The notes under the pieces were generated by a model. It was given only the letters and a program-made list of their open reading frames with translations, was not told the DNA's origin and did no database searches. From assembly GCF_018977255.1 (NCBI RefSeq), contig NW_024704743.1, forward strand, positions 22,384,001 to 22,448,000: a stretch of DNA of 64,000 nucleotides, written 5' to 3'. Position 1 is the stretch's first letter; every line of letters starts with the position of its first letter. The DNA comes from Callorhinchus milii. Taxonomy: Eukaryota. The position numbers and the translations under genes were made by a program. Shown one piece after another: positions 27,440 through 51,164 of this stretch.

Positions 27440-27773
27440 CCTGTAGCTCATTGGTTATAGCACTCGCCTCGCAAGCGAGAGACCTGAATTCTATTCCGGC
27501 AGAGCAAAATGTTGAGCAAATTTCCTTACTCCACTTGCCTCTGTTTACCTAGCAATAAGTAGGAACCCAGTTGTTAGTTGGCGGATCACTTTTACNAAAA
27601 AAATTTGATCACTCAATCCACGACTGTCCGTGGGACACTCCTGTGCACAATTGGCTGCCACGTTTTGCCCACAAATATACAGTCAATTCACTTTACAGTA
27701 TATTCTGTGAAGTGCTTTGCCACATCTAGAAGACGTGAAAAGTGCTATATCAAATGCAACGGTTATTATTGTT
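27440..27773 (+). mobile_element. tRNA-derived SINE, long subfamily (contains an N at 27596)
   Basis: Same architecture as the 23392 copy. Confidence 0.85.
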
Positions 27774-39300: not shown

Positions 39301-42300
39301 TGAAAGCATTTCCAGGAGCAGACATTTTGTACCAAATGCTTTCATCTATAATCACTCAAAAAAAGAACTTTAGGACCGATACCAAGAAATATTTCCTTCA
39401 GTATCTTGAATAGTCTTGAATAGCAAAGAAAGGAAAACAATTCGGTTGGCATTGAAGACAGATAAGATCAAATGGGCTGAAGGGCATTCTTTGTCCGAAT
39501 CACTGGACAGAAATGTCAGAACATTATTGTAAAGAGGAAGATTGACCTTCACTAAATATCCGGTCCCATGTTGTCTCAACAACCATTTCAATACCCAAGG
39601 CACAGGAAGAATAGACAACTGAAAGACGTCAATTAGGACCACCTTATAATTTTTGAGATTCTGCTGAAATTTGATTCAAATTAAGTCAAGACACATTTCG
39701 CAAAAGGTTCCTACCCTAGTAGCCAGTAACAGCTGACTATGTGTGGTGCAGAGAGGACCATAAAGCACAAGTGAAACCAACGATAATAATGATATGCAAT
39801 AATTAGATTGACTACTAACCTTTACCATGCCTGGAGGTGGCTTCTCGTAACTATCAAAGAAATAAAAAAATTCACATTTCTTAAACAGCTCACATGAGAA
39901 ATATTCAATTGCTGTTGCTTTGCACCAGTTTGTCCTCCCCTTTAATAAATTTACCTGGCTTCAGACTTTGCAATTAAGAGACAGAAACAAATTAATTTGC
40001 AACCAAATTGAATATTAATGAAAAGGGATGTCCTATGACTCAGTGCACAAGTTTCAGCATTAAGGAACAAGATTGGCAGAGTATCTCCTTTCTCACGTAT
40101 TCAAGACTTGGCTACTAAAAACTACCAAATCAATGCAGAATTTGTTGAGGCCGAGTTGGCAAAATTGCTTCACTATGACAGAAGTACCATCTCAGGAACA
40201 CAGAAAGGTAGTTACTGAAGGAACAGGGAAAACACTGATCCCCATTTTGAAAATATCAATCAAAGAGCAGCATTGTTTATCTTAGAAGCATAGAAATTTA
40301 CAACGCAGAAGGGGGTAGTTCAGCCCATCAAATACGAACCGGCTTTCAGAGCAAATTGTTCATTCACTTCCACTGCCATGCCTTAACCCCATACCCCTCC
40401 AAGCCTCTTCCTTTCATATACCTGCCCTTCCCTCTGGAAACCCGCATGGGCTCTGCCTCTCCCGCCTTACTTGGCAGGGATTTCAACATTCCAACAACTT
40501 TCAGAGTGAAAGAAAATTCTACTAAACTCTCCTTTTGCTCTTTTCGCACAGTTGTATCACGTTCGTCACATCCAGGAGCCACTAACACAAACTCCCGCTT
40601 GTCGGCCTCCCCAACTCCTCCCTCCACAGGCTGCAGATCATCCAGAACTCTGCTGCCCTTGTCCTCTCCCGCACCAGGCTTTGCGACTCTATCACCCACA
40701 TCCTTGCCCGACTGCATTGGCTCCCCATCTCTCAGTTCAAGATTCTGGTCCTCAGCTTCAAAGCCCTCCTCCCTACCTCTGTGACCTCCTAACCCCCTAC
40801 CAACATGTCTGCCCCTTCTCTCAGTGGGCTCTGCCCTGGTTCAAATCACCCGCCTTCAGCCTCTCTGTCCCCACCCTCTGGAACTCAATCCCACAGTCCC
40901 TCCACCTCGCTCCCCTCCCTCAACCAACCGTGTCATTAGTCACCCTCCTACCTCTACCCTCTCCACCCTCCACCTAACCACCAGCTCGGGTGTGTTTTCC
41001 TAACTGTTCTGCGCCTTGAGACGTCCTCCTGATGTGAAAGGTGCTATACAAATGTAATTTGTTGGAGTTGTAAGTAAAGCAGGGAGCCACTAGTGACCAT
41101 CCAACTCAAGAAAAATGAGCATACTCCAAGGCCAAATTGGTACTCCAAGATTAGTACCCCAATAACCAACCTACACAATTATAGCAAATCTATTTCAAAT
41201 ACATACTCACAAAAAATTAAGACATGTATCACGGATTGAGACACAATCTTAAACCGTTTGTATCAAGGGAAAAAAAGATAAAGTATTGGAATTTGGTTAT
41301 GATCACACAGTAATTACAGAAGCAGAGAATAGGTATCCTGGTCACACTGTAAGTTGGGTAATGCTGCACAGTGCAAGGAACAGGATTTTGAAAAGGTTTT
41401 GGAGTTGTGTACTGGTCAGAAATAAAATCAGTGGAATTTTTTTGATTAGCTGGGTGACATGTCACGAAGATGTCTCGAAGCGCTTCACAGGATTTACTGT
41501 AAAGTGTACTGACTCTGTTTTTTGTGGGCGAATGTGGCAGCCAATTTGCGCACACCAACACCCCACAAACAGCCATGGAGTGAGTGACTAATTTTATCTG
41601 GGCGATTGTTGGCAACTGGCTTGGGAACTGGACTGCTGAGACAGCCACACAGGGTTGGTCCATTCCCGACACTCTTTTGCCAAGGAGACCCCGCTTACCT
41701 CGCCCCAACCAAGGCGGGCAATACTCTCCAGAATAAGATAAGGCAGGGTGCTCCCTTGTTGGCGAGATTGTACATTTCTATTCCAGACAGGGAAATGTCC
41801 ATGTTTAGATAGGCATACATACATGGTACTCCCAGTATGATTTGGATATTCTTAAATACCGTAATGGGTTTATGCTTGTGCCAAACACCCAGGTAACCCC
41901 CAAAAATGTGAGTAACTCGAAAAAGAGCAGAGAACTTGAGTGGTTAGCTCCAGTGGGGGAACCATCACCAGTATCAGCTGCACAGGCAAATGACATCCCC
42001 CTTTCTGGACTTTCCAATGGAACCAGGAAGTACATGCAAGTATTTATCCAGATGGCAATAATTACAACTCATATTTCTACAGCACCCTTCATGGGGGGGG
42101 GTGGGGGTGGTATCGTCTCGGAGCACTTTAAGCAGCTCGAAGCTATGATACAAAGACAAGGTGTGTGTTTTGAAAGGATGAGATCGAAAGGGTCACCATC
42201 ACCTGAATCGACTTTATGATCTTGCGTTATAGGCGTTAAGCTCTCTGTGAGGCTCCTGGCGTGACGGGCGCTATAGCATAATAATAGTAATATGTCTCAA

Positions 42301-43387
42301 AGCGCTTCACGGAATATGCTGTAAAGTGAATTGACTGTGATATTTTGTGGGCAAAACACGATAGCTGCCAGTGCTGCTTGTTGTTGTTGTTGTTGTTGTG
42401 TGAGCGGGGGAGGGGCTGCTGGTGGGGGGGGGCTGCTGGTGGGTGGGGGGGCTGCTGGTGGGTGGGGGGAGGGGCTGCTGGTGGGTGGGGGGAGGGGCTG
42501 CTGGTGGGTGGGGGGAGGGGCTGCTGGTGGGGGGAGGGGCTGCTGGTGGGGGGAGGGGCTGCTGGTGGGTGGGAGGGGCTGCTGGTGGGGGAGGGCTGCT
42601 GGTGGGTGGGGGGCTGCTGGTGGGTGGGGGGAGGGGCTGCTGGTGGGTGGGGGAGGGGCTGCTGGTGGGTGGGGGAGGGGCTGCTGGTGGGTGGGGGGAG
42701 TGGCTGCTGGTGGGTGGGGGGGGCTGCTGGTGGGTGGGGGGAGGGGCTGCTGGTGGGTGGGGGGCTGCTGGTGGGTGGGGGGAGGGCTGCTGGTGGGTGG
42801 GGAGGGGCTGCTGGTGGGTGGGGGGAGGGCTGCTGCTGGTGGGGGAGGCGCTGCTGGTGGGTGGGGGGGAGGGGCTGCTGGTGGGTGGGGGAGGGGCTGC
42901 TGGTGGGGGAGGGGGGGGGAGGGGCTGCTGGTGGGTGGGGGAGGGGCTGCTGGTGGGTGGGGGAGGGGCTGCTGGTGGGTGGGGGGAGGGGCTGCTGCTG
43001 GTGGGGGGAGGGGCTGCTGGTGGGTGGGGGGGAGGGGCTGCTGGTGGGTGGGGGGAGGGGCTGCTGGTGGGTGGGGGGGTCGGGGGGAGTGGCTGCTGGT
43101 GGGGGGGTGGGGGGAGGGGCTGCTGGTGGGGGGGTCGGGGGGAGGGGCGGCCGCTGCGGCGCTGTCGGACCGTTTACCCGTCGCCTTGTGCCCGTCTGCC
43201 CTCACGCGGGATTTATTTTTGTTTTTTGCTCTTACAACGTCTCCACATGTTTGATTTTCTTCACTTCCTGGTGCAGCCGCTTCTTCTTCTTCTTGTACCG
43301 GTCCCGGTCCCGGTCCCTCTCCCGCTCCCCGTCGGGCTCCTTCTCCTCCCGTTTGCGCCGCTTCGACCGCCTCTCGCTCTCGGCCAT
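30163..43387 (-). CDS. RP9: RP9 / PAP-1 pre-mRNA splicing factor, complement(join(30163..30340,32075..32136,35202..35293,37913..38042,39820..39850,43236..43387)), 214 aa
   Basis: Six GT-AG exons (152, 31, 130, 92, 62, 178 nt) join in frame to 645 nt. The translation contains the RP9 motifs FYEKPPPG, KPEDCIPD.PGNE.AR.FLAHAPTKGLWMPLG.EVKVMQCWRCK..GHRTGD.ECPFF, AHEDPMYD and RIQQLKQLLED, plus a Lys-rich tail. Confidence 0.97.
32075..32136 (-). CDS. RP9: RP9 exon 5 (AHEDPMYDVIRENKRHEKET-R)
   Basis: Acceptor CTTCACTAG, donor CAG|GTGAGT. Confidence 0.96.
33112..33450 (+). mobile_element. L2 3' end, same young subfamily as 52659-53334
   Basis: Near-identical 3' UTR and (TTG)n tail. Confidence 0.9.
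33508..33860 (+). mobile_element. unclassified ~600-bp element, internally deleted copy in RP9 intron 4
   Basis: 5' half and 3' end colinear with 17105-17703. Confidence 0.75.
35202..35293 (-). CDS. RP9: RP9 exon 4 (C-WRCKHFGHRTGDRECPFFISGNQKLEHFRV; CCHC knuckle)
   Basis: Acceptor TTTCCAG, donor GTA|GTAAGT. Confidence 0.96.
36103..36428 (-). mobile_element. tRNA-derived SINE, long subfamily (5'-clipped), RP9 intron 3
   Basis: Same architecture as the 23392 copy. Confidence 0.85.
37192..37691. repeat. 16-bp minisatellite (CCCATTTGTAGGAGTG / CCCATTTGTATTAGTC) in RP9 intron 3
   Basis: About 31 units; alternating A/B variants at left, more diverged at right. Confidence 0.95.
37913..38042 (-). 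CDS. RP9: RP9 exon 3 (EDDDKPEDCIPDLPGNEGARDFLAHAPTKGLWMPLGREVKVMQ-C)
   Basis: Acceptor TTTGTTCAG, donor T|GTAAGC; conserved RP9 core. Confidence 0.96.
38153..38463 (-). mobile_element. tRNA-derived SINE (short subfamily) in RP9 intron 2
   Basis: Same architecture as the other short copies. Confidence 0.85.
38834..39075 (+). mobile_element. L2 3' end, young subfamily
   Basis: Near-identical 3' UTR; TTGAAGTG duplicated at both ends. Confidence 0.9.
39820..39850 (-). CDS. RP9: RP9 exon 2 (F-YEKPPPGMVK)
   Basis: 31-nt exon, acceptor TTTGATAG, donor AAG|GTTAGT. Confidence 0.93.
40282..40530 (-). mobile_element. CR1 3' end
   Basis: CATAGAAATTTACAACGCAGAAGG...TTCAGCCCATC reverse tail. Related tails at ~4745-4810, 16845-16965, 19075-19200 and 27797-27885. 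Confidence 0.7.
40565..41070 (+). mobile_element. L2 3' fragment in RP9 intron 1
   Basis: IIQNSA and PTLWNSIPQSL motifs plus tail. Confidence 0.85.
42405..43150 (+). repeat. G-rich minisatellite, ~23-bp unit GGGGCTGCTGGTGGGTGGGGGGA, in RP9 intron 1
   Basis: About 30 tandem copies read directly; G-run lengths vary. Confidence 0.95.
43236..43387 (-). CDS. RP9: RP9 exon 1 (MAESERRSKRRKREEKEPDGERERDRDRDRYKKKKKRLHQEVKKIKHVETF)
   Basis: ATG at 43387 (gtaATGG), donor TT|GTAAGA, phase 2 matches exon 2. Confidence 0.92.
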
Positions 43388-43672
43388 TACCCACAACCCC
43401 CCACTCCCTCACACCGCTCCCCCTCCCTCCCTCCCCTCCCGGCCCCGCCCCCCGTCCCGCCCCGCGCTGCTCTACGTCACTGTACCGTCCTGCGCAGGCG
43501 CAAACCCGCCCCATGCTGGCTGCGCGTCCAAGACAATAACTTCCGGTCTGGCCTCCCCCCCCCCCCCCTCACGCGCGCTCGGCCACACTGAGTGGGTGGG
43601 GGGGGTGGGGTTTGTTGCACCGGACGTGACGTACCGCACACACACCAAAAAAACGCCATCGAAAAAAGAGCG
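43388..43672. promoter_or_regulatory. bidirectional CpG-rich promoter shared by RP9 and GGCT
   Basis: 285 bp between divergent ATGs. GC boxes (CCCGCCCC at ~43444, ~43456, ~43505), CRE/ATF half-sites (TACGTCA ~43473, GACGTGACGT ~43623), NRF1-like TGCGCAGGCGCA at 43491-43502, ETS ACTTCCGG ~43539. Confidence 0.85.
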
Positions 43673-43885
43673 ATGGGAAGCGTTGACGGTCGAGTCACCG
43701 GCCGATGGGCCCGAGCGCCACTGGCAGCGCTGCTCGGCCTGGTCGCCATGGTGACCGACCTGGACGGCGGCCGCCCCGACCACCCAGCCAGCTTCCTGTA
43801 CTTCAGCTACGGCAGCAACCTGCTGCAGCAGAGGCTCCGGCTCAACAACCCCTCGGCCGTGAAAGTCAACGTGGGCTGTCTGAAG
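43673..43885 (+). CDS. GGCT: GGCT exon 1 (MGSVDGRVTGRWARAPLAALLGLVA-MVTDLDGGRPDHPASFLYFSYGSNLLQQRLRLNNPSAVKVNVGCLK)
   Basis: In-frame ATGs at 43673 (gcgATGG) and 43748 (gccATGG); donor AAG|GTGGGG. Confidence 0.88.
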
Positions 43886-46800
43886 GTGGGGAGTGGGTAC
43901 TGCTGTCAGAGCGGGGAGTTGGGGGGAGTGGGTACTGCTGTCAGAGCGGGGAGTTGGGGGGAGTGGGTACTGCTGTCAGAGCGGGGAGTTGGGGGGGAGT
44001 GGGTTTGCTGTCAGAGCGGGGAGTTGGGGGGAGTGGGTTTGCTGTCAGAGCGGGGAGTTGGGGGGAGTGGGTTTGCTGTCAGAGCGGGGAGTTGGGGGGA
44101 GTGGGTCTGCTGTCAGAGCGGGGAGTTGGGGGGGAGTGGGTACTGCTGTCAGAGCGGGGAGTTGGGGGGGAGTGGGTACTGCTGTCAGAGCGGGGAGTTG
44201 GGAGGGGATTGGGTTTGCTGTCAGAGTGGGGAGTTGGGGGGAGTGGGTACTGCTGTCAGAGCGGGGAGTTGGGGGGAGTGGGTACTGCTGTCAGAGCGGG
44301 GAGTTGGGGGGGAGTGGGTACTGCTGTCAGAGCGGGGAGTGGGGGGAGTGGGTACTGCTGTCAGAGCGGGGAGTTGGGGGGGAGTGGGTACTGCTGTCAG
44401 AGCGGGGAGTTGGGGGGAGTGGGTACTGCTGTCAGAGCGGGGAGTTGGGGGGAGTGGGTTTGCTGTCAGAGCGGGGGAGGGGGGAGTGGTATGCTGTCAG
44501 AGCGGGGAGTGGGGGGAGTGGTTTGCTGTCAGAGCGGGGAGTTGGGGGGGAGTGGTTTGCTGTCAGAGCGGGGAGTTGGGGGGGAGTGGTACTGCTGTCA
44601 GAGCGGGGAGTTGGGGGGAGTGGGTTTGCTGTCAGAGCGGGGAGTTGGGGGGAGTGGGTACTGCTGTCAGAGCGGGGAGTTGGGGGAGTGGGTACTGCTG
44701 TCAGAGCGGGGAGTTGGGGGGAGTGGGTACTGCTGTCAGAGCGGGGAGTTGGGGGAGTGGGTTTGCTGTCAGAGCGGGGAGTTGGGGGAGTGGGTACTGC
44801 TGTCAGAGCGGGGAGTTGGGGGGAGTGGTTTGCTGTCAGAGCGGGAGTTGGGGGGAGTGGGTTTGCTGTCAGAGCGGGGAGTTGGGGGGGAGTGGGTACT
44901 GCTGTCAGAGCGGGGAGTTGGGGGGAGTGGGTTTGCTGTCAGAGCGGGGAGTTGGGGGGAGTGGGTCTGCTGTCAGAGCGGGGAGTTGGGGGGAGTGGGT
45001 TTGCTGTCAGAGCGGGGAGTTGGGGGAGTGGGTCTGCTGTCAGAGCGGGGAGTTGGGGGGAGTGGGTCTGCTGTCAGAGCGGGGAGTTGGGGGGAGTGGT
45101 ACTGCTGTCAGAGCGGGGAGTTGGGGGAGTGGTACTGCTGTCAGAGCGGGGAGTTGGGGGGGAGTGGGTTTGTTGTCAGAGCGGGGAGTTGGGGGGAGTG
45201 GGTACTGCTGTCAGAGCGGGAGTTGGGGGGAGTGGGTACTGCTGTCAGAGCGGGGAGTTGGGGGGAGTGGGTACTGCTGTCAGAGCGGGGAGTTGGGGGG
45301 AGTGGGTACTGCTGTCAGAGCGGGGAGTTGGGGGAGTGGGTTTGCTGTCAGAGCGGGGAGTTGGGGGGAGTGGGTACTGCTGTCAGAGCGGGGAGTTGGG
45401 GGGAGTGGGTTGCTGTCAGAGCGGGGAGTTGGGGGGAGTGGGTACTGCTGTCAGAGCGGGGAGTTGGGGGAGTGGGTTGCTGTCAGAGCGGGGAGTTGGG
45501 GGAGTGGGTTTGCTGTCAGAGCGGGGAGTTGGGGGGGAGTGGTACTGCTGTCAGAGCGGGGAGTTGGGGGGAGTGGGTACTGCTGTCAGAGCGGGGAGTT
45601 GGGGGGGGGTGGTACTGCTGTCAGAGCGGGGAGTTGGGGGGAGTGGGGTACTGCTGTCAGAGCGGGGAGTTGGGGGGGAGTGGGTACTGCTGTCAGAGCG
45701 GGGAGTTGGGGGGAGTGGGTACTGCTGTCAGAGCGGGGAGTTGGGGGGAGTGGGTACTGCTGTCAGAGCGGGGAGTTGGGGGGAGTGGGTACTGCTGTCA
45801 GAGCGGGGAGTTGGGGGGAGTGGGTACTGCTGTCAGAGCGGGGAGTTGGGGGGAGTGGGTACTGCTGTCAGAGCGGGGAGTTGGGGGGAGTGGGTACTGC
45901 TGTCAGAGCGGGGAGTTGGGGGGAGTGGGTCTGCTGTCAGAGCGGGGAGTTGGGGGGAGTGGGTACTGCTGTCAGAGCGGGGAGTTGGGGGGGGGAGTGG
46001 GTCTGCTGTCAGAGCGGGGAGTTGGGGGGGGAGTGGGTCCTGCTGTCACGCTTTAGGTCACCTTCCCACCCCACCCCACCCCCCCGTTGGCTGCACCCCT
46101 CTACACCCTTCTCAAATCCAACCACCAGTTCAGGTGCACACCCTCAACTGTCCAGCTCCTTGGGACATGCTTCAGGTCGCCGAGACAACAACAAGACTAC
46201 ACTTGTATAGCCCCTTTCATGTCGGGAGGACGTCCCAAGGCGCTGGACGGAGTACAGCATTTCAGACCCGAGCTGGGGTCGGGAGGAGAAGGGGAAGGGG
46301 GGTGGCCGATGGCATGGTCGAAGAGGAGGGTCTTGAGGCGGGACTTGAAGGAGGCTACGGAGGGGGCGAGGCGGAGTGATTGGGAGGTGGAATTCCAGAG
46401 GTTGGGGGCAGAGTGGCTGAAGGCTCTCCCGCCAATGGTGAGGCGGGTGGGTCAGGGGACGTGGAGCAGGCCAGAGCCGGCTGAGCGGAGGGAGTGGGTG
46501 GGTTAGTAGGGGGTTAGGAGGTCGCAGAGGTAGGGTGGGGCGAGGCCATGGAGGGCTTTGTAGGTGAGGACCAGGATCTTGAACTGGATCCTCTGAAGGA
46601 TAGGGAGCCATTGGAGTCGGGAAAGAATGGGGGAGATGGGGGTCACAAAGTTTGGTGCGGGAGAGGACACGGGCTGCAGAGTTCTGGATTATCTGCAACC
46701 TGCAGAGGGAGGAATTGGGAAGGCCGACAAGCAGGCAAGGGCAGGTCCGCGAAGATTAAGTAAAGAGGAGAGGCGGTGTATGAGGATGGGGTGGTCGACA

Positions 46801-49092
46801 GTGTCAAAGGTGGCAGAGAAGTCGAGGAGGACAAGGAAGCAGAGGGAACCCTGATCACAGATGTTCAGAATGTCATTAGTGACTGACCAGGGCTGTTTCT
46901 GTGCTATGGGCAGCGCGGAAGCTGGATTGGAGGGGTTCAAAGAGGAAATGGCGAGAAAGAAAGGAGCAGAGCTGGGACGCAATGACTCATTCCAGGAACT
47001 TGGAGAGGAATGGGAGGTTAGAGATGGGCGGTAGCTGGAGAGAAGGGATGGGTCCAGGGAAAGGTTTTTTTCAAGATGGGGGTGATGACGGCTGTTTTTA
47101 GCGGGGTGGGAACTAAACCGGTGGACAAGGAGAGGTTGATGACGTCGGGCAGGAGAGGGACCAGAAGCAACAACAGCGTTTGTATAGCGCCTTTCACGTC
47201 GAGAGGATGTCCCAAGGCACTGATCAATCAATGCGCTTGTGAAAGTCTCAAATGACATCCTCTCTATCTGTGACCAGGGCTCCCTCTGCCTCCTCGTCTT
47301 CCTGGACCTCTCTACCGCTTCAGCCACTACGCCCCGAGGCTCTGGAACTCCCTTCCTCACTCCCTTCGCCTCGCTCCCTCTCTTCCTATTTTCAGATCTC
47401 GGCTGAAGACTTTTCTTTTCGACCGCGCCTTTGGTCACCTTCCTCCCCCTCCCCCTGGTTCAGCCCCGGGATCCGTTATTGTGAAGCGCTCTGAGATACC
47501 GTCTGGCATGGAGAGCGCTATATAAATCCAAGTTGTTGTTGTTGTTTCGGGCCCGAGTTGGGGAGAATGGATGGCAGCTGGGGCAGGAGGGTGACCGAAG
47601 GCACAGTCGAAAATTAACTTGTTTCCCAATTGATTTGTGTGGTCAACAACGGTAAAGATTCCAATGTTCAGTATTGCTGCGTACAAAGTATGTGAAGTGT
47701 ATTGTTTTGGTGCAGTTCATTTTTTTTTCTTCAGGGCTACAAACTTGCATTTGGAATTCACAATAACACTTACAGCAGATGGGGTGGAGCGTCAGCCACC
47801 ATTGTCCGTAGCTCTGAAGATGAAGTGTGGGGAGTTGTTTGGCGCCTGAACCTTTCTGAGCTTGACTCTCTGGATAAGTGAGTACACAAATTGAATGGAG
47901 TGAGAGGAAAAAAAATTGGAAACACTAAGTTTCTAAATTTGAAAGCTTCTGCCTTAAAGAAACTTTACGGGAGAAGCTTTCCTAAACCACTACTAACTGA
48001 AGCTACTAACTTCTGTGTATTTGATTCATAAATTCTAATTCCTCTTTCACCTATAGACAAGAAGGTGTACCAGATGGGCATTACAATCCAATAGAGGTAA
48101 TAATTAAGCAAATAAGCCCAGGAGAAGATCAACTGTGCCGGTCCTATCAGATGAATGTTTCCAATTATTCCTTTCCATCACAGATTTACAAAGAGGTAAA
48201 TACCACATTTTCTTCCCGTATTTAATTTTAAAACCCAAATTTGCTGATGTTTGTGCCCATGAATTTGTGTGGATCTCTGAGACTAATTTTGATGGAATTC
48301 CAGTAATCCTTCCAGAACAACCAGTTCCAAAATCCTTGTTGAAAAGCCTGTACCAGAAATCCTTACAGAAAGAATATCACCTTTTAAAGAACTTCACTCC
48401 AGCAACCAGTTTTAAACTTTCACAAGATTCTTTCAATGACTTTTTACTTCTTCTGTTTCTCAGATTGTGTTCTTGTGGTGATTATCCCTTAATGGGGTTT
48501 GAAAATACAATAACAACTTGCACTTATATAATGCCCTCCACGCAGGGTAGCATCTCAGAGTGCTTAACAGTGGCGGAGCCTCACTTTAACAAAGTATTGT
48601 TAAATGCAGTATTGGCAAACCAGAATTAGCTGTTTGCCAATATCTTCAAATCCCTGAATGTCTTGGGACGTCCCCAAACGTGAAAGACGTTATACAAATG
48701 TAGTTTGTTGTTGTTGGATTAACAGCGACTATAGTTTGCAAATTTGTGGTATTCAGTATCTAATGTTTTATTTTAAATGGGAAAACTCCTTTTCACAATA
48801 GATGCATTCTGCTAGTGTGAACTGTGGGCATCCATTAATTTGAAGAAAGTTCCAGAAAGACATACAACAGCAATGGTAATTTATATTTGCTTTTCTTTTA
48901 TTTCAGGTAATTTGTACAGGGGCAAAACAAAATGGGCTGCCTGCTGAATATGTGGAGAAGCTGCTTGACATAGAAACTAACAGTTATAACGGAACAACAC
49001 CATTTATATTGGACATTAAAGAGATGCTAAATCAAGTAAAAAACAATCTAAATCCTCTCACTAGTTTTGGGAAAGTTGCAGTCTCTTTGTAG
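43673..49092 (+). CDS. GGCT: gamma-glutamylcyclotransferase family protein, join(43673..43885,47735..47877,48057..48195,48907..49092); 226 aa from ATG 43673 or 201 aa from ATG 43748
   Basis: Four GT-AG exons join in frame. Motifs FLYFSYGSNL, NPSA, WGGA.ATI, DEVWGVVW, SLDKQEGV (catalytic Glu), CRSY, PS..Y and GAKQNGLP.EY..KL match vertebrate GGCT. Orthologue versus paralogue is not resolved. Confidence 0.93.
43886..46048 (+). repeat. G-rich minisatellite, 33-35-bp unit GAGCGGGGAGTTGGGGGGAGTGGGT(ACT/TT/CT)GCTGTCA, in GGCT intron 1
   Basis: About 60 tandem copies starting at the splice donor; no stop codons in the + frames. Confidence 0.97.
46185..47160 (-). mobile_element. L2 LINE fragment with internal deletions, GGCT intron 1
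   Basis: LKTAVITPILKK, LVLLDFSATFDTVDH, IIQNSAARVL and 3' UTR. Confidence 0.88.
47735..47877 (+). CDS. GGCT: GGCT exon 2 (GYKLAFGIHNNTYSRWGGASATIVRSSEDEVWGVVWRLNLSELDSLD-K)
   Basis: Poly-T tract plus TTCAG acceptor; donor AA|GTGAGT. Confidence 0.95.
48057..48195 (+). CDS. GGCT: GGCT exon 3 (K-QEGVPDGHYNPIEVIIKQISPGEDQLCRSYQMNVSNYSFPSQIYKE)
   Basis: Acceptor CTATAG, donor GAG|GTAAAT. Confidence 0.95.
48907..49092 (+). CDS. GGCT: GGCT exon 4 (VICTGAKQNGLPAEYVEKLLDIETNSYNGTTPFILDIKEMLNQVKNNLNPLTSFGKVAVSL*)
   Basis: Acceptor TATTTCAG; TAG at 49090-49092; AATAAA candidates near 49470, 49676 and 50772. Confidence 0.94.
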   Translation, partial: VICTGAKQNGLPAEYVEKLLDIETNSYNGTTPFILDIKEMLNQVKNNLNPLTSFGKVAVSL

Positions 49093-51164
49093 TAGAATTT
49101 TGGATATTTTAAATGCGCTGAATTTGCTTTGAGGCTGTTCTTGTGAGAAGTGCAATTTTTATAGAGATGAAGTACAATGAAATCAGCTTTAGGCGGACGG
49201 ACGCTGGTTAACTCAAACATAACGGTCAGCCCCGATTCACTTGCATCCTTACCTGTTTTAAATATGCCAGTTAATTCGGACAAAAATCTGGTTATTCCGG
49301 TCAAAATGGCACGCTGGTCGCCACTGTATGTCAAGTGGCTCCAATCAGCCACGAGGGGCTGCACGATAGAGATGGGTGGAGTCTAAGATTGTTTGACAAC
49401 GGACTCCAGCCTTTCACCAGCGGGTGGAGTTGGGCTGTCAATCAGTGGGGGGGCGGAGAAATGGGGAAGAATAAAGGAGGGAAATGATGATTGATTGACA
49501 GCTGAGCCACTTGTGAATGGGTCGAGCCCAAACATTCACAGCCGCCTCCGAGGCTGTCAACCACCTCAGTGCAGCACCAATTGGTCCCCTTCCCGTCCAG
49601 TGGGAACGGCAGTGGGAGGGAGGAGGAGCCACCGCTGCTCCTCTGCTGGCGTGAAGTTATTTTGCAGCCTAACAAAATAAATATATTTCACTGAATTCTG
49701 TGAGAGTACAGTATTTTCATTCCGGGGTTAAAATACTCGGTGTCCTGTTTGGTTAGTTAACAATGCTTCAAGCAAAACAACATTATTACATATTATTATA
49801 CGGTGTCGGCAGCACTCTGCTGGGCAGGAATGGTATTTCAGCTAACCTCGGACACCTCTTAACCAGACAAAACAGATATCCCCGATGTGTCCGGCTTAAC
49901 AGGCTGTAATTTACAGTAGTTTATTTGTGGGTGATTTGCAAACTAGAAATATGTGGTATAATGAAGAGTACATTTTGGAAATGGAATTGTGCACAAGCAT
50001 GTAATGCATAGATCTTCTGTTTTGAAATGTTTATTTTCTGCAATATTTTCATGGTTACTTTTACCAGTTTCACTGGTTCTGGCAGCTTATCGGTCATTTC
50101 AGCTATTGTTTCATTGATTATCAAAAACTGAGTAAAATAGAATTAAATTAGTGATCAACTAAAGTCTGTCATCAGCTTATTACTCACTACTTGTTCCACA
50201 GCAGTTTATTTCATCAATTTATTGGAAACAACAACAACAACTTGGATTTATATAGCGCCCTCCACGCCGGACGGAGTCTCAGAGCGCTTTACAATATCGG
50301 ATCCCAGGACCGAGCCAGGGGGAGGGGGAGGAAGGTGACCAAAGGCGCGGTCGAAAAGAAAAGGCTTCAGCAGAGACCTAAAATGGGAAGGGAGGGAGAG
50401 AGATGAAGGGAGTGAGGAAGGCAGTTCCAGAGCCTCGGGGCATAGTGGCTGAAGGCATGGCCGCCGAGGGTGGAGTGGAGGACTCGGGGGAGGAGGAGGA
50501 GCCAGACCCGGAGGAACGGAGGCAACGGGTACTGTTTTGAGAGAGAGGAGGTCAGAGAGGTAGGGTGCAGGGCAATGCGACGGAGGTGGAAAAAGGCAGT
50601 GCTGGTAAGGGACCGGATGTGGGGGAGGAAGGATAATTGGGGTCGAACCTGACGCCTAAACTGTTTCATCAGAATACATTAACATTTTTAATAATGTTTA
50701 GTTACAGATGATACGAATCATTACGAATTATTTTAATAATAGTAAAACAGTTACTGTTTTTCCTTATTGATAATAAACATTAAACTATGCCTTTTTTTCA
50801 GTGTTCAAGAATTATCTTAAGGAAGTTATAATGTAGTACATTATAATGTGTCCATGGACATTTTAGTTCTTTTGGAGAGAGACCTTTAGCATTGGTAAGT
50901 CTTTTGAATACGGTGTCATTTGAGAGTTAATTCTGTCTTTAAAATATTTTTGATACTATGAATATTATATTCATATTTTAGAATTATTTTGACTTTCTTG
51001 CAAAAATGGTCATCCAATTTGTTTCCCTAAAAATAGTACCAAAATATACAAATACCAGTTGGTGATTTATTTTCTCCTTATCAAATACAGTACCTTACTT
51101 TTATGACATCTAACGTATTTAGATTACTCTTCAATTAGCCACTACATACACCTGCGTAATGTGA

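Follow-up and report, generated by a model that had tools for sequence, protein, structure and literature searches.

The window analyzed here, a 64,000-nucleotide stretch of Callorhinchus milii DNA (contig NW_024704743.1, positions 22,384,001 to 22,448,000), harbors a gene for gamma-glutamylcyclotransferase (GGCT) with two putative in-frame start codons. The first of them adds a signal-peptide-like leader, and sequence comparison indicates that GGCT very probably enters the secretory pathway, an estimate covering all readings that include such entry. The explanation favored here, with moderate confidence, is a two-start gene which would provide a freely secreted enzyme and, from the second start, a cytosolic form. 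The new point is a methionine conserved after the leader, at the position where short gene models start. The original prediction had proposed a secretory-pathway or extracellular GGCT at this locus. Entry into the pathway was supported by the presence of the upstream ATG in spliced contigs and by the conserved leader; the trait is not specific to this locus, the weight given to glycosylation sequons was not upheld, and a possible cytosolic form had not been considered.

Gene structure and identity of the protein

The GGCT gene is located on the plus strand and comprises four coding exons between positions 43673 and 49092 of the window, with GT-AG at every junction and a product of 226 amino acids. 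Coding exon 1 (43673-43885) contains the YGSNL motif, encoded at 43808-43822. Exon 2 (47735-47877) carries sequons N81 and N110, exon 3 (48057-48195) encodes the catalytic residue E121 at 48061-48063 together with sequons N152 and N155, and coding exon 4 including the stop codon (48907-49092) contains sequon N193 at 48988-48996. The first AATAAA past the stop codon, a candidate polyadenylation signal, was found at 49470-49475 of the same strand, and another one at 49676. A search with exon 1 returned a single protein, the C. milii gamma-glutamylcyclotransferase P0001 of UniRef. The 226-aa product is identical to P0001 over the full length; therefore, the long form corresponds to an existing public gene model.

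Pfam analysis assigned the protein to PF13772 (AIG2_2; 89.4 bits, cut-off 27) and PF06094 (GGACT; 31.2 bits, cut-off 22.8), and the score for ChaC (15.4 bits) was below the cut-off of 21. The AlphaFold model of P0001 showed a mean pLDDT of 84.8, with residues 13-30 below 50. The top Foldseek matches were human GGCT, with 3CRY aligning at 1.1 Å rmsd, a target TM of 0.96 and 48% identity; identity to GGCT chains was 48-50% as compared to 11-18% for ChaC2 and GGACT chains. A phmmer comparison with human GGCT 2PN7 gave an E-value of 2.4e-44 across residues 35-197. YGSNL (residues 46-50) aligned with 2PN7 residues 22-26 and E121 with Glu98, which is described as the acid/base residue of human GGCT (PMC7022552); retention of both elements, as had been claimed, was thereby confirmed. 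Furthermore, E121 and Y46-N49 were invariant in all 31 aligned sequences, and the Atlas clusters returned for P0001 were GGCT clusters only. By all tested features the protein is a GGCT of the C7orf24 type with predicted activity, and the gene is best explained as the chondrichthyan orthologue of vertebrate GGCT. Human GGCT (C7orf24; 2PN7, 3CRY) shares with it the YGSN loop, the catalytic Glu and one sequon (N87, equivalent to N110), but consists of 188 amino acids and has no hydrophobic leader.

Ser or Asn replaces the Gly following the catalytic Glu in homologues P0009, P0011, P0038, P0042 and P0044. Two apparent tandem GGCT domains were observed in P0271, P0272, P0269, P0121 and P0124 (sea urchin, starfish, an arowana isoform and unnamed; 319-419 aa). 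A shark-specific disulfide via C69 was considered and dropped, with Tyr or Arg present at this position in 4 of 12 chondrichthyans.

The upstream start codon and its leader

The predicted upstream ATG at 43673 was confirmed: it is in frame with the ATG at 43748 and adds 25 amino acids. This start codon and its 25-codon signal-peptide-like leader occupy 43673-43747 of the plus strand, with G at -3 and +4 (gcgATGg), and the nearest in-frame stop codon upstream is at position 43589. The second in-frame ATG (43748-43750, plus strand), encoding M26, likewise has G at -3 and +4 (gccATGg) and would give a leaderless form of 201 amino acids. An out-of-frame ATG of weaker context (C at -3), absent from the original prediction, is present on the same strand at 43705-43707; in the mRNA after splicing, it begins an overlapping frame of 70 codons.

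Leaders were scored by a Kyte-Doolittle (KD) hydropathy window, not by a trained signal-peptide predictor, with a 9-residue mean of ≥2.0 as our own cut-off. The best 9-residue window of the C. milii leader reached 2.77. Among 29,740 stop-free sequences obtained from 50,000 base shuffles of the leader, 0.047% reached at least 2.77 and 1.7% at least 2.0. Judged by hydropathy and residue inspection, the leader is modest in form: it has a 15-residue n-region with a net charge of +2, a short hydrophobic stretch of 7-11 residues and A25 as the likeliest residue at position -1. According to the (-3,-1) rule, signal cleavage is likely to occur after A25, so that the mature chain would begin with M26. 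The C. milii protein ends with VAVSL, hence with no KDEL-type retention tail, and chondrichthyan tails likewise have no KDEL-like end.

An extension of this kind can also be read as a mitochondrial presequence, for which the three Arg within leader residues 7-14 would be suitable. The acidic D5 and the unbroken hydrophobic run speak against this reading, as do homologous leaders, which contain much Leu, Val, Phe, Cys and Trp and, in most cases, little Arg; we regard it as scarcely credible. Alternatively, the leader may stay uncleaved as a type II signal anchor, or the enzyme may be sorted to lysosomes, so that it would be membrane-bound or luminal. The leaders of Carcharodon, Heterodontus, Mobula, Pristis and Clupea show 19-residue KD means of 2.0-2.3, enough to span a membrane, and many soluble glycosylated hydrolases are lysosomal. 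However, the best 19-residue mean of the C. milii leader is 1.41, which is below that of a typical membrane helix, the small residue A25 ends its hydrophobic run, and many leaders of homologues have a short, classical form. Anchoring or lysosomal sorting thus appears unlikely, and a cleaved ER signal peptide is the preferred reading of the leader.

Transcript evidence for the upstream start

Four of 15 listed runs were examined; the run type is not on record as RNA, and RNA status was deduced from splice junctions. In two of the four runs, X1 and X3 of one study, ATG 43673 was found inside contigs in which exon 1 is spliced to exon 2. The loose end of the X1, X3 and X5 contigs beyond 43886 corresponds to window positions 47736-47765. 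As the exon 1 donor is joined directly to exon 2 sequence, the X1 and X3 contigs are taken to derive from spliced mRNA. They begin at 43641 and 43647, respectively, and thereby define a 5' leader of the transcript at 43641-43672 of the plus strand, although the true start may lie elsewhere. The X4 contig from a second study starts at 43684, within the peptide leader and downstream of the first ATG, and the X5 contig from a third study starts at 43744, also downstream of it. Since contigs cannot show start sites, these later starts were not taken as alternative promoters. At least part of the mRNA therefore carries the upstream ATG, and the leader withstood this examination of RNA.

Conservation of the leader in vertebrates

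The first homologue set consisted of 120 listed of 209 matches to P0001, of which 119 were scored after exclusion of one isoform. Among these listed matches, whose kinship makes the counts non-independent, a leader (KD ≥2.0) was detected in 10 of 12 chondrichthyan models, the query included, in 3 of 8 amphibian and 5 of 18 ray-finned models, and in one of six unnamed rows, which groups with caecilians. None of 49 sauropsid and 26 mammalian models, 0 of 75 amniotes, carried a leader. The two leaderless chondrichthyan models start at the second Met and look like shortened annotations. A second search, with 120 of 1614 matches listed, was rich in teleost ggctb; removal of two echinoderm rows and four rows without the anchor motif and addition of ten earlier rows gave 104 ray-finned rows, of which 47 had a leader among the matches listed. 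Danio aesculapii ggctb (P0281) is one leader-bearing protein. Absence of the leader from the other 57 ray-finned rows and from 5 of 8 amphibian models, again among the matches listed, may be an annotation effect or true loss, and some long percomorph leaders may result from faulty models.

Leader hydrophobicity is conserved; leader sequence is not. Six amniote models extending upstream served as a negative control and scored just 0.17-1.54 KD; amniote models may, however, be biased toward the human start. Many models of teleost ggctb and some of the ggcta clade (Hucho, Gadus) show the same leader architecture as the C. milii protein, but belong to lineages separate from the chondrichthyan clade. 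Additionally, 148 new rows of unnamed 50%-level representatives were analyzed, and 21 of the 130 motif-bearing ones passed the cut-off, at least one of them via a simple repeat. Several leader-passing unnamed rows fall outside the vertebrate clade; exported GGCTs may therefore recur in other animals.

As judged from these models, the leader is broadly distributed over non-amniote jawed vertebrates. It is not a special trait of the C. milii locus, and the suspicion voiced with the original prediction, that signal-bearing GGCTs may already be annotated in other fishes, proved correct for many public gene models. The leader itself stood up to the comparison, with hydrophobic leaders found in sharks, rays, amphibians and teleosts. 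Because such signal-peptide-like leaders also occur in sharks, amphibians and bony fishes, these animals probably export GGCT.

The protein could instead be an ordinary cytosolic GGCT translated from M26, with the upstream ATG rarely used or with an extension that has no targeting role. Amniote and short fish models begin at the position of M26, mammalian GGCT is cytoplasmic and nuclear according to a study on the human enzyme (PMC4538363), and the X5 contig starts just upstream of M26, with the limitation on contig starts given above. Against this, stop-free, Met-initiated hydrophobic leaders occur in all four groups of non-amniote vertebrates named above, and the hydrophobicity of the C. milii leader is far beyond chance level in the base shuffles. 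Leader-bearing models that lack a second Met and the clade-wide N193 sequon likewise argue against an exclusively cytosolic enzyme, which we consider very unlikely.

The second methionine

A Met is located 15-20 residues ahead of the domain in all 12 chondrichthyan models among the matches listed. Each of the 10 leader-bearing chondrichthyans has it after the leader, and in an alignment anchored on the Met itself no flanking column agrees in more than 7 of 12 models; the background Met frequency is 2.1%. After 44 of 47 ray-finned leaders among the matches listed, a Met is found at most 14 residues from the domain, where short models start, and all three amphibian leaders also have a following Met. 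No Met near the domain was present in the leader-bearing ray-finned models P0129, P0366 and P0368 (two catfishes and one knifefish); consequently, the leader start can be the sole start in a model. P0129 had also been considered as a basal ray-finned fish, which was rejected because it is a teleost.

The conserved second Met suggests that a cytosolic form is made too, with this codon probably kept as its start. At the C. milii locus, the one for which codon context is known, the downstream in-frame Met is in good context. Each chondrichthyan species has one GGCT locus among the matches listed (120 of 209); cytosolic activity would therefore need the M26 start. Gelsolin, glutathione reductase and GPx4 are dual-location proteins in which initiation upstream attaches a targeting peptide and initiation at a Met further downstream yields the cytosolic version. 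These proteins are unrelated to GGCT, for which the second start is deduced from conservation alone.

Alternatively, only the secretory form might be made, and the second Met, then not a start codon, would be kept as the N-terminal residue of the processed enzyme. The likeliest cleavage, A25|M26, does place Met at +1, the Met is missing from the three ray-finned models named above, and the first ATG has a strong context. Moreover, the out-of-frame ATG 43705 between the starts would lower leaky scanning to M26, which also counts against a two-start gene. However, the Met of homologues is mostly found several residues past the hydrophobic run, with neighbors that vary freely, the context of ATG 43748 is ideal, and the single GGCT locus per chondrichthyan species among the matches listed would then provide no cytosolic enzyme. 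Exclusive production of the secretory form is quite unlikely in our judgment, and the two-start gene is retained as the preferred explanation.

N-glycosylation sequons

All five predicted sequons were confirmed (N81 NNT, N110 NLS, N152 NVS, N155 NYS, N193 NGT). Their number had been counted as evidence for secretion, for which it is weak: 20,000 residue shuffles gave a mean of 2.08 sequons and a marginal P of 0.041 for five, mammalian models have 0-3, and N110 is common to cytosolic human GGCT (N87). Sequon number was therefore rejected as main evidence. Among the matches listed, chondrichthyans averaged 3.25 domain sequons, as compared to 1.85 for mammals and 1.31 for sauropsids; the difference between chondrichthyans and mammals gave P = 0.001, with kinship ignored. 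A site equivalent to N110 occurs in human 2PN7 and in 10 of the 19 bony vertebrates aligned, mammals among them, and since it is shared with a cytosolic enzyme it is uninformative on secretion. Of the 11 other chondrichthyans, 10 have the N193 sequon, whereas none of the 19 bony vertebrates does; it is located in a loop of the AlphaFold model. N81, N152 and N155 are common to 2, 4 and 4 of 11 other chondrichthyans, respectively. Two further kinds of sequon are absent from the C. milii protein and were observed within P0002-P0014: one just past the second Met in many shark models (7 of 10 leader-bearing rows), and C-terminal sequons.

Phylogeny and proposed function

Trees were calculated from the domain alone with 53 rows, or 54 rows with an unnamed outgroup; P0179, meant as an ingroup row, is a crinoid. 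The trees recovered chondrichthyans (100/99) and ggcta (100/86) as clades and ggctb plus tetrapods as a less well supported one (81/87), with no firm order among the three. As Amia has both types, the ggcta/ggctb split predates teleosts. Each of these three vertebrate lineages included leader-bearing rows, and so did amphibians. The simplest reading would be a single origin of the leader, ancestral in jawed vertebrates, and its loss in amniotes.

From these comparisons we infer that a start at ATG 43673 would yield a 226-aa precursor, the leader of which would act as an ER signal peptide and probably be cut after A25. The enzyme would be N-glycosylated, with N193 as the best candidate site, and we propose its release from the cell because it has neither a KDEL-type tail nor a transmembrane helix. 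Ribosomes passing the cap-proximal first ATG, which lies some 30 bases into the transcript, would start at ATG 43748 by leaky scanning; alternatively, mRNAs beginning downstream of the first ATG, from a downstream promoter, would use this start. Its product would be an almost identical cytosolic chain. Either form would convert gamma-glutamyl amino acids to 5-oxoproline and a free amino acid, and the secreted one may contribute to extracellular gamma-glutamyl turnover downstream of GGT.

According to a review of the gamma-glutamyl cycle (PMC6073726), cells take up gamma-glutamyl peptides, which GGCT then cleaves intracellularly. GGCT-like proteins are reported from venom or venom glands of the parasitoid wasps Nasonia, Anisopteromalus and Torymus (PMC4776022, PMC7930282) and set a precedent for an exported GGCT domain; compared by description alone, they differ in their insect venom setting, with a function stated as unknown. 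Zebrafish ggctb is described as a marker of leptomeningeal cells (10.64898/2026.02.14.703877) and, together with epd, c4, cp and vtnb, as enriched in cells of the leptomeningeal barrier (10.1101/2025.04.09.646894); its co-markers include secreted proteins. In the portions available, these papers use ggctb as a marker alone and do not discuss its secretion. The literature searched, which consisted mostly of abstracts, contained no report of a secreted or signal-bearing vertebrate GGCT and no proteomic record of GGCT outside cells. PMC9808068 was rejected as a GGCT paper since it concerns CHAC2. Automatic database annotation may already flag such leaders.

Tentatively, and with slightly more doubt than confidence, we suggest that the ancestral jawed-vertebrate GGCT was both secreted and cytosolic from one gene. 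Fishes and amphibians would keep an extracellular cyclotransferase step acting on GGT-made gamma-glutamyl amino acids, e.g. from leptomeningeal cells into brain fluid, and amniotes would have lost this branch together with the leader. If so, the purely cytosolic GGCT of textbooks would have arisen secondarily in amniotes. With an exported enzyme, import would no longer be required, and extracellular glutathione salvage in non-amniote vertebrates would work differently; zebrafish ggctb, so far a meningeal marker alone, would gain a testable role, and caution would be needed in simply equating fish ggct genes with the gene for the cancer-associated human enzyme. Neither the enzyme family nor the leader-bearing gene models are new to public databases, which makes the finding less surprising.

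Surroundings of the gene in the window

A spliced minus-strand gene is arranged head to head with GGCT, with exons at 43236-43387 and 39820-39850. Its ATG is about 285 bases from ATG 43673, and the stretch between them is CpG-rich. The first exons of this neighbor resemble RP9, as we assume; Pfam and Atlas gave no usable match for them. Pfam also returned no match above cut-off for 12 other open reading frames of the window. Intron 1 of GGCT contains, from the splice donor onward, a G-rich tandem repeat of about 2.1 kb with a unit of about 35 bases (43886-46040), which creates spurious open reading frames of 789-872 amino acids; the RNA contigs still splice at 43885. A second G-rich tandem repeat (42400-43150) is located in the first intron of the minus-strand neighbor, on the other flank of the shared promoter. 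The window contains a single N, at position 27596.
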